From: Thermoproteota archaeon
GTDB lineage: Archaea > Thermoproteota > Thermoprotei > Thermofilales > B9-G17
Length of the DNA: 33,172 nt
NCBI GenBank assembly: GCA_029258885.1
Contig: JAPDJW010000025.1
Coordinates: forward strand, 1-33,172
Reading direction: 5' to 3'
Shown piece by piece: positions 29,823-32,891 of this stretch. Under the pieces are notes generated by a model. The model had not been told where the DNA came from and ran no database searches. It worked only from the letters and a program-made list of their open reading frames with translations. Position numbers and translations under genes: made by a program. Positions within the stretch are counted from its first letter, which is position 1. Every line of letters begins with the position of its first letter.

Positions 29823-29896
29823 TGGGGCCGCGGGGATTTGAACCCCGGACCACCTGGGCCCGAGCCAGGCATCCTACCAGGCTGGACTACGGCATA
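29823..29896 (-). tRNA. tRNA-Pro(CGG), intronless, with positions 1-3 encoded as TAT instead of GGG
   Basis: Minus strand: TAT-GCCG TA GTCC AGCCTGGTA GGAT G CCTGG CT-CGG-GC CCAGG TGGTC CGGGG TTCAAAT CCCCG CGGCCCC A. All arms pair except base pairs 1-3. Confidence 0.88.
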
Positions 29897-29918
29897 TTAA
29901 TAGACAAAAGTATTTTCT

Positions 29919-29930
29919 CATATACTTTTC
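29919..29930 (-). promoter_or_regulatory. BRE/TATA-like element of tRNA-Pro
   Basis: GAAAAG-TATATG; TATAT ends 23 nt before nominal position 1. Confidence 0.5.
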
Positions 29931-30002
29931 GATAAGGGAGCCCATCAATCAAGCCACTAGCTTTATTAAATTACACTACTATATTAACTCGTCTGATAAA
30001 GG

Positions 30003-31343
30003 ATGAGGGTCCAAAGCACTGATAGAATGATGAATAGTATGGAAATGCCGGTTAATATAGTAGACACATCCATGAAGATATTGAAGAAATATCCTTTATG
30101 TTCTAGGTGTTTGGGCAGACAGTATGCTCTTTTGGGCAAACAACTTAGCAATCTAGAGAGAGGTGAAGCGATAAAGACCGTACTTCTCATGGAGATACAT
30201 AACAAGCTGATGAGAAATAGCGATGCATATAGGGAGGAACTAAAGGCTTTAGCTAGAAGCCAGTTTAAAAGAGCCCAAATATTATACGAAAACCTATATG
30301 GAGAGAAAATATCGGAGGAAAAATGCTATATTTGTAGCAATTTATGGGAAAAACTTGATATAATTGCAGAAAAAGTAATTAATTTAATTGAAAATATAGA
30401 GTTTAATACGTTTCTAGTAGGCTGTCGAATTCCGGTCGAAATAATTGAGAAAGAAGATAATTTAAGGGCTGAATTTAAACTTGAATACGGTGAATCATTT
30501 AAAAATAACTTCAATAGAGAATTAGGTCGTCTCATTAGGGATAAGCTAAATAAAGAAGTAGATTTTCAGAAACCGGAGATAACGATTATTGTTGAACCAT
30601 TTACTGAAAAAGTTGAAATAGTTATATCTCCCCTCTTCATATATGGACGTTACAGGAAACTTGTTCGCGGTCTTCCCCAGACCCGCTATAGGAAACACGA
30701 TAAATTAGGCCGCGTGGTTTACAATACATCTATTGAAGAAATAATAGGCGAACCATTGCTAGAGGCCGCACATGGTGAGGAGTTTAAATTTCATGGAGCA
30801 GGAAGAGAAGACATAGACGTAAGAATGCTAGGCAATGGAAGACCCTTTATAGTGGAAATTAAAAGACCTAAGAAAAGAAACTTGGATTTAAAGAAGTTAG
30901 AAGAGGTTATTAATGAAAAAGCTAATGGTTTAGTAGAAGTAACGGGTCTAAGATATTCAAATAGACATGAGGTAAGGGAATTAAAGAAAATGGCTGAAAT
31001 ATCGAAAAAGATCTATAGGGCCATTGTGGAGTTCGAGAAAGCGGTCTCAGATGAAGATATAGAGAAAATACTTCGAGAACTAAATGACATAACAGTCTTA
31101 CAGAGAACGCCTTTTAGAGTTCTTCATAGGAGAAAAGATAAAGTAAGAAGAAAAAGGGTATATGATATTAAAGTAAGAAAATTAGGTGATAATGTACTGG
31201 AAATAATACTTACCTGTCAGGGGGGCTTATACATTAAGGAATTCATTCATGGTGATGAAGGAAGAACTAATCCGAACATAGCGGACATAATAAATAATAC
31301 CGTTACCAAAATCGAACTAGATGTCTTAGACATTATATATTAG
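30003..31343 (+). CDS. pus10: tRNA pseudouridine(54/55) synthase Pus10
   Basis: YPLCSRCLGR, YIYGRY-like FIYGRYRKLVRGLPQT, FHGAGREDIDVRMLGNGRPF, QRTPFRV and GGLYIKEFIHGDEGRT. True start may be a downstream Met. Confidence 0.95.
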   Translation: MRVQSTDRMMNSMEMPVNIVDTSMKILKKYPLCSRCLGRQYALLGKQLSNLERGEAIKTVLLMEIHNKLMRNSDAYREELKALARSQFKRAQILYENLYGEKISEEKCYICSNLWEKLDIIAEKVINLIENIEFNTFLVGCRIPVEIIEKEDNLRAEFKLEYGESFKNNFNRELGRLIRDKLNKEVDFQKPEITIIVEPFTEKVEIVISPLFIYGRYRKLVRGLPQTRYRKHDKLGRVVYNTSIEEIIGEPLLEAAHGEEFKFHGAGREDIDVRMLGNGRPFIVEIKRPKKRNLDLKKLEEVINEKANGLVEVTGLRYSNRHEVRELKKMAEISKKIYRAIVEFEKAVSDEDIEKILRELNDITVLQRTPFRVLHRRKDKVRRKRVYDIKVRKLGDNVLEIILTCQGGLYIKEFIHGDEGRTNPNIADIINNTVTKIELDVLDIIY

Positions 31344-32793: not shown

Positions 32794-32891
32794 CGCCGGG
32801 GGTGGGATTTGAACCCACGAGGGCCTTCTGGCCCACCGGGTTTCTTGAAAGATCTCGAGCCCGGCGCCTTGGTCCACTCGGCCACCCCGGC
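32794..32891 (-). tRNA. tRNA-Ser(CGA) with 12-nt intron at 37/38 (32842-32853)
   Basis: GCCGGGG/CCCCGGC acceptor stem fully paired, CCGGG-CT-CGA-G[intron]A-CCCGG, long variable arm GGGCC-AGAA-GGCCC, T loop TTCAAAT, G73. Confidence 0.93.

Follow-up and report, generated by a model that had tools for sequence, protein, structure and literature searches.

A tRNA-Pro(CGG) gene lacking its first three bases

The tRNA-Pro(CGG) gene of an uncultured Thermoproteota archaeon from hydrothermal vents, of the order Thermofilales (GenBank assembly GCA_029258885.1) does not encode the first three bases of its tRNA, and appears to be a working gene within a genome-wide class of 5′-truncated tRNA genes. The gene lies at positions 29823-29896 (minus strand, positions 1-3 of the tRNA included) of the window, that is, the whole stretch of 33,172 nucleotides of contig JAPDJW010000025.1 that was analyzed. 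Truncation is confirmed as a real observation and as a systematic, lineage-specific feature, which we document here through the anatomy of the gene, its genome-wide pattern, the spacing of the promoters, and the presence of a suitable enzyme. We consider it probable that these genes give rise to 5′-truncated, leaderless transcripts that are completed by templated 3′-5′ polymerization, a process in which the enzymatic fill-in and the exact start of transcription are what we infer from the sequences.

The encoded body of the tRNA, positions 4-73, is located at 29823-29893 on the minus strand (anticodon CGG, 29860-29862), and its 3′ acceptor strand, CGGCCCC followed by A73, is intact. On the 5′ strand, which reads T-A-T-GCCG, the bases T-A-T (29896-29894, minus strand) are found where G1-G2-G3 are expected and do not pair with C72, C71, and C70. 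A 7-bp acceptor stem is thus not encoded by the gene, which has pairs 4-69 to 7-66 only. The D, anticodon, and T arms of the cloverleaf are all present, ARAGORN calls the gene Pro-cgg, and the Rfam tRNA model (RF00005) scores 46.6 bits against a cut-off of 29 bits, with an alignment limited to model positions 4-67.

The stretch occurs in abundance in several metagenomes from vents and sediments. Metagenomes of hydrothermal vents and sediments from three independent studies yielded contigs with the same letters (X2 record 8, X6 record 24, and X3 records 12 and 14). These contigs span 29864-30100 or 29864-29924, with zero differing letters across the tRNA-Pro junction, and the agreement of the three studies on TAT excludes an assembly error. 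An exact search of metagenome contigs with the Pro-CGG body gave no match. The triplet that a sequence-only reading of the window had pointed out in an otherwise intact gene is genuine. Within the 2.1-Mb genome, similarity to Pro-CGG is confined to the tRNA-Pro(UGG) gene (contig C3:217687-217760), which is intact, starts with GGGGCCG, and differs from positions 4-73 of Pro-CGG at a single position, nucleotide 34. As that reading presupposed, no second Pro-CGG gene was found in the 2.1-Mb genome.

Truncated tRNA genes across the genome

A census of every Rfam tRNA match in the genome, with introns resolved by hand, gave 45 tRNA genes. Non-pairing bases at 5′ acceptor positions 1, 1-2, or 1-3 were present in 13 of the 45, and mismatches were found nowhere else in the stems, a pattern that exceeds chance. 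Seven genes miss position 1 only (Met/Ile2-CAU, Lys-UUU, Gly-UCC, Arg-CCU, Val-CAC, Arg-UCG, and Ala-GGC), four miss positions 1-2 (Ala-CGC, Arg-CCG, Arg-UCU, and Pro-GGG), and two, Pro-CGG and Gly-GCC, miss positions 1-3. In each of these 13 genes, the 3′ strand is identical to that of intact isoacceptor paralogs. Acceptor mismatches confined to 5′ positions 1-3 and facing an intact 3′ strand had been predicted from the Pro-CGG gene, and this is the pattern observed here as well as in the sister genome described below (5/39 genes). The accompanying claim that every missing base is a G was not upheld, as C2 would also be needed in both truncated Gly genes, Gly-GCC requiring G-C-G.

Truncation is biased toward tRNAs whose mature end starts with GG (11/20 truncated vs. 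2/25 of the others, Fisher p = 0.0008), which is the expected outcome if transcription of a shortened gene still has to start at a purine. With at most three bases missing, at least four G:C pairs are left to hold the template. Reading the 3′ end of Pro-CGG as a 4-bp stem followed by an encoded CCA (CGGC-C-CCA) was also considered and rejected, because the intact paralog with the same 3′ end has a 7-bp stem; this reading also fails for the genes that miss position 1 only.

The truncated genes are the sole decoders of several major codons. According to codon shares computed from 492 long open reading frames, they alone decode AGA and AGG (85% of Arg codons), GGU, GGC, and GGA (86% of Gly codons), GCU and GCC (58% of Ala codons), CCU and CCC (50% of Pro codons), and AAA (43% of Lys codons), and are thus not dispensable. 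Early pseudogenisation, which had been kept as a reservation about Pro-CGG, does not account for a defect shared by indispensable tRNAs. The terminal helices of 5S rRNA and of RNase P RNA are fully encoded, and the defect is therefore specific to tRNA.

Two further observations were made during the census. None of the 45 genes encodes tRNA-Leu(GAG), the genome being 99.9% complete; this gene may be heavily disrupted or fall in an assembly gap. In addition, ARAGORN misnames the intron-containing tRNAs of this genome.

Promoter spacing and predicted transcription starts

When the 60-nt upstream regions of 39 tRNA genes were searched for motifs, a 13-nt B recognition element/TATA (BRE/TATA) motif with the consensus GAAAAGTTTATAA was recovered. 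The promoter of Pro-CGG, CGAAAAGTATATGAG (29917-29931, minus strand), scores among the best of the genome, and its 13-nt motif ends 24 nt before G4, which is the 25th base after it. The identical 15 nt are present upstream of three truncated genes, Pro-CGG, Gly-UCC, and Gly-GCC (upstream regions at C2:380808 and C3:260500). Truncated genes have 20-23 nt between the motif and canonical position 1, whereas the mode for intact genes is 24 (Mann-Whitney p = 2e-5), and the distance from the motif to the first paired G of the truncated genes is 22-24 nt, with a median of 23. When the pyrimidine-purine step closest to position 1, either at it or upstream of it, was taken as the predicted start of the intact genes, leaders of 0-3 nt were obtained for 26/27 genes and a leader of 7 nt for one. 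The gap between motif and start, with predicted starts uncertain by 1-2 nt, then showed no difference between intact genes (median 24 nt to the predicted start) and truncated genes (median 23 nt to the first paired G; p = 0.17).

The first retained base is a G preceded by a pyrimidine in 13/13 truncated genes, and in 18/18 when those of the sister genome are included; the chance of finding a pyrimidine at −1, given a non-G base, is ~0.001 and 7e-5, respectively. In intact genes, the −1 base is a purine in 20/27 and a pyrimidine in 7/27. The pyrimidine-G step may be regarded as archaeal initiator-like, and in Pro-CGG the predicted initiator, T3 followed by G4 (29893-29894, minus strand), is the likely transcription start. 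Taken together, the spacing, the pyrimidine-G step, and the GG bias indicate that transcripts begin at the first paired G and are leaderless, and the T-A-T at 29894-29896 is probably outside the transcript. Two routes to a shortened end had been proposed, namely transcription from the first paired G or trimming back, and promoter geometry favors the former.

These data suggest a simple scheme. The BRE/TATA promoter of Pro-CGG would direct initiation at G4, where pairing with the 3′ strand begins, and the primary transcript would be a leaderless 5′-triphosphate tRNA without nucleotides 1-3. A Thg1-like protein (TLP) would then add G3, G2, and G1 in the 3′-to-5′ direction, with C70, C71, and C72 serving as template; addition would stop at the full 7-bp stem.

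A candidate 3′-5′ polymerase

The polymerase on which the sequence-only reading depended was found by profile searches, with its catalytic residues, as was RNase P RNA. The genome contains a single Thg1-family gene (G000, contig C2:186889-187683) encoding a TLP of 264 aa, which matches PF04446 with 100 bits and Thg1C, the C-terminal domain, with 34 bits. Among proteins of solved structure, the Methanosarcina acetivorans TLP is its best match (5AXK-5AXN, E = 4e-54). Alignment with nine relatives shows no variation at the catalytic carboxylates D35, D82, and E83. The RNase P RNA is of the full archaeal type (153 bits). A search of genome contigs with the single TLP protein as query gave no match.

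The structures of the M. acetivorans TLP were solved to explain templated addition on 5′-truncated tRNA (PMC4820378). According to a 2019 review, all tested bacterial and archaeal TLPs prefer the repair of 5′-truncated tRNA in vitro, templated addition of all four bases is possible, and the natural substrates of these enzymes “remain to be identified” (PMC6471195). Our literature searches found no description of truncated tRNAs encoded in archaeal genomes. Considering the gene set and the enzyme together, the first one to three bases of the truncated tRNAs are most likely supplied after transcription by the organism's own TLP.

Outside the family, the closest Thg1-like proteins (51-52% identity) are encoded by vent metagenome-assembled genomes (MAGs) of other orders, assigned to Methanomethylicota/Culexmicrobium and Baldrarchaeota (L080, L081, and L148), and hint at a possible transfer of the TLP gene among vent archaea.

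Distribution among relatives

A sister genus, represented by an uncultured Thermoproteales MAG (G001), has a TLP that is 55% identical to that of the window genome and truncation in 5/39 tRNA genes (Met-CAU, Val-CAC, Val-UAC, Val-GAC, and Arg-GCG). All five are without G1 and G2, their 5′ strands reading TTGCCCG or CTGCCCG vs. CGGGCCC. The sets of truncated genes differ between the two genomes, which points to repeated, independent, and ongoing erosion in one lineage.

In 29 relatives, every Pro gene that was recovered starts with GGGG or GGGC. Pattern screens, which were limited to the GGGCCCG acceptor class, detected no position-1 mismatch outside the family among 41 genomes of the order and no genuine position-1-2 mismatch outside the family among 120 genomes of the class. 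Matches to the position-1-2 pattern in three Pyrobaculum-like genomes were artefacts, being chance matches in or beside tRNA genes with intact 5′ ends. In a phylum sample of 401 genomes, the position-1 screen gave three cases only, each of a single gene, and no multi-gene truncation was found in the other 119 class genomes (positions 1-2) or in the other 400 phylum genomes (position 1). The expectation that the trait would extend to sister genomes was thus borne out for one sister genus and not for the rest of the order.

One of the three single-gene cases belongs to a TLP-positive, distant genome of the same phylum (G225). Its Arg-UCG gene (C64:109-183; L171), with CGGCCCG vs. CGGGCCC, is the one such gene in that genome, and shows promoter spacing and a pyrimidine-G step as in the window genome. 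Thg1-like genes were found in 23/41 genomes of the order, 21 of them outside the family.

Evidence against completion by TLP and alternative explanations

Several observations weigh against leaderless transcription followed by completion by TLP. The transcription start is a prediction from promoter spacing, and position 2 of Gly-UCC is a matching C, which makes the start site of that gene ambiguous. No RNA run contains the stretch, and one metatranscriptome run, from a sample in which part of the DNA is present, gave no contig. An N1×C72 mismatch occurs in one tRNA gene in each of two Pyrobaculum-like genomes that have no PF04446 match, the gene being Val with TGGCCCG in one (G101; L077) and Arg-GCG with CGGCCCG in the other (G103; L078), and a single position-1 mismatch is thus possible without a detectable TLP. 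Finally, the 21 TLP-positive genomes outside the family have intact genes, both in the screened GGGCCCG class and among the recovered Pro genes; the enzyme is therefore permissive for truncation and does not predict or discriminate it. As to the two Pyrobaculum-like cases themselves, the mismatch may be tolerated, the gene may contain a tiny intron, or an enzyme may have been missed.

These two single N1×C72 genes favor an alternative in which there is no repair, and in which tRNAs function with a mismatched or shortened 5′ end and an acceptor stem of 4-6 bp. We regard this as unlikely. It leaves unexplained that C70-C72 are the same as in intact isoacceptors in all 13 genes, and, judging from tRNA biology, a 4-bp stem would be implausible in a vent thermophile, particularly for Gly-GCC, the sole decoder of GGU and GGC. 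Synthetases and elongation factor use the G1:C72 pair and the 5′ phosphate, which also counts against an absence of repair.

A second alternative is 5′ editing of the mitochondrial type, with the mismatches transcribed, RNase P cutting at position 1, a nuclease removing U1-A2-U3, and TLP refilling the end. Such a pathway of excision and refilling is known from the mitochondria of Acanthamoeba and Dictyostelium (PMC5041481, PMC4284800). The presence of RNase P RNA in the genome is consistent with it, and the 1-2 nt uncertainty of start-site prediction leaves room for transcribed mismatches. It is disfavored, however, by the promoters of the truncated genes, which lie 1-3 nt nearer to the tRNA body, a shift that approximates the number of missing bases, and neither the strict pyrimidine-G rule nor the GG-start bias is required by it. 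We therefore consider that it, too, has little chance of being correct.

The missing bases might also be supplied by RNA polymerase itself, through slippage or priming at initiation, or by an unrelated enzyme. Reiterative initiation at homopolymer starts is known in other RNA polymerases, and the missing bases are mostly G beside a run of G, which would fit slippage. However, Pro-CGG, Arg-CCG, Arg-UCU, Ala-CGC, and Gly-GCC keep a single G before C and offer no run, and slippage could not write the G-C-G or G-C needed by the two Gly genes or produce three Gs from the single G of Pro-CGG. Supply by these other routes thus appears improbable.

A fourth possibility, which we hold to be very improbable, is that a tiny 5′ exon, consisting of a leader and the GGG at 29941-29943 (minus strand), is spliced to G4 by the bulge-helix-bulge endonuclease, or that the gene is a split or a permuted one. 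Non-canonical tRNA introns abound in the genome, and this GGG is located 45 nt upstream. Nevertheless, it was rejected as a micro-exon: it lies upstream of the promoter, which is at the standard distance and inside the would-be intron; no bulge-helix-bulge helix (exon-exon, central, or intron) can form at the junctions, as judged by folding and manual inspection; and a divergent strain in metagenome run X3 has GGA at 29941-29943. Extended to the other genes, the model demands 1-nt exons in seven of them.

The least credible explanation is that the gene is a pseudogene in decay, was left behind by an integration event, or arose as an artefact of assembly, since, although the CGG isoacceptor is dispensable because Pro-UGG is intact, the gene has a strong promoter, a perfect body, and the same sequence in three studies, twelve further and mostly essential genes have the same defect, and the sole similar gene is the intact Pro-UGG isoacceptor, with no integrase among the genes around tRNA-Pro.

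Taken as a whole, the interpretation offered in the sequence-only reading is supported, as each of its predictions that is open to a test on sequence was borne out, while the enzymatic fill-in by TLP is what we continue to infer.

Other tRNA genes and neighbors in the window

Two other tRNA genes of the window had been mentioned in comparison with tRNA-Pro, and both descriptions proved accurate. The tRNA-Arg(UCU) gene (2397-2500, plus strand) has a 5′-strand defect, with GTGCCCG facing CGGGCCC and a U2×C71 mismatch; its retained end begins at G3, and its BRE/TATA box was located by the motif search at 2363-2375 (plus strand). It contains two introns, one of ~22 nt within the D region and another of ~15 nt that follows the anticodon, encodes its CCA end, and is wrongly named Val(aac) by ARAGORN. 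The tRNA-Ser(CGA) gene (32794-32891, minus strand), which has a 12-nt intron, possesses a fully paired acceptor stem and serves as an internal control.

The neighbors of tRNA-Pro are housekeeping genes encoding a Hel308-type helicase, ribosomal protein L34e, cytidylate kinase, a PUA-domain protein, and Pus10, a tRNA pseudouridine-54/55 synthase whose gene (30003-31343, plus strand) is divergent from tRNA-Pro; the TATA-like boxes at ~29952-29985 are probably its own. In the divergent strain of metagenome run X3, 14 substitutions and one insertion were found within 29925-30036 and zero changes in the 30 nt adjacent to the tRNA (29895-29924). This unchanged segment may be under constraint as the region that separates the TATA box from the start site, or may mark the boundary of a recombination event.

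Comparison with known systems and biological meaning

The pattern reported here is similar to mitochondrial tRNA 5′ editing in Acanthamoeba castellanii, Dictyostelium discoideum (DdiTLP3), and chytrid fungi, where mismatches also fall within the first three 5′ acceptor positions, the intact 3′ strand serves as template, and the organism encodes a Thg1-like 3′-5′ polymerase. It differs in being located on an archaeal chromosome; moreover, the defective bases are apparently untranscribed and no excision would be needed, and the substrate would carry a 5′ triphosphate. The TLP belongs to the same family as the archaeal enzymes characterized in vitro (M. acetivorans, Pyrobaculum aerophilum, Methanopyrus, and Methanothermobacter), which are known to prefer 5′-truncated tRNAs, and its catalytic carboxylates are kept. 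However, the hosts of those enzymes have complete tRNA genes and no known natural truncated substrate, whereas in the present genome roughly one tRNA gene in four would rely on TLP.

The predicted start at a retained purine, at a fixed distance from the promoter, is reminiscent of the leaderless tRNA genes of Nanoarchaeum equitans, which start at the mature 5′ purine. In that organism, initiation takes place at position 1 and RNase P is lacking, whereas this genome encodes RNase P RNA and its truncated genes have predicted starts at positions 2-4. Thermoproteales and Thermofilum, members of the same lineage, are known for non-canonical introns and for tRNA genes that are split or permuted, and other tRNAs of this genome contain multiple introns. 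Unlike those split or intron-containing genes, the truncated genes show no bulge-helix-bulge and no conserved upstream exon, and their promoter abuts the retained body.

Thg1-like 3′-5′ polymerases are widespread in Archaea and Bacteria and repair 5′-truncated tRNAs in vitro. The present genome offers a concrete and testable substrate set for a TLP, with 13 tRNAs of known missing-base counts, the matching enzyme, and intact isoacceptors as controls. There is also a consequence for annotation, as covariance models and tRNA finders truncate or down-score such genes.

More broadly, the balance of evidence is about even as to whether TLP has become obligatory for tRNA maturation in one vent family of Thermoproteales/Thermofilales-like archaea, with a quarter of the tRNA genes producing leaderless 5′-triphosphate transcripts that start 1-3 nt inside the acceptor stem and are completed in the 3′-5′ direction. 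If true, these tRNAs would be the first natural substrate set of a prokaryotic TLP, and would represent a form of 5′ “editing” without an excision step. If confirmed, reverse polymerization would take place routinely in the cytoplasmic tRNA biogenesis of a prokaryote. It would parallel, in an archaeon and with an independent origin, the tRNA editing of organelles, and would exemplify a repair activity that lets genes erode until repair becomes essential.
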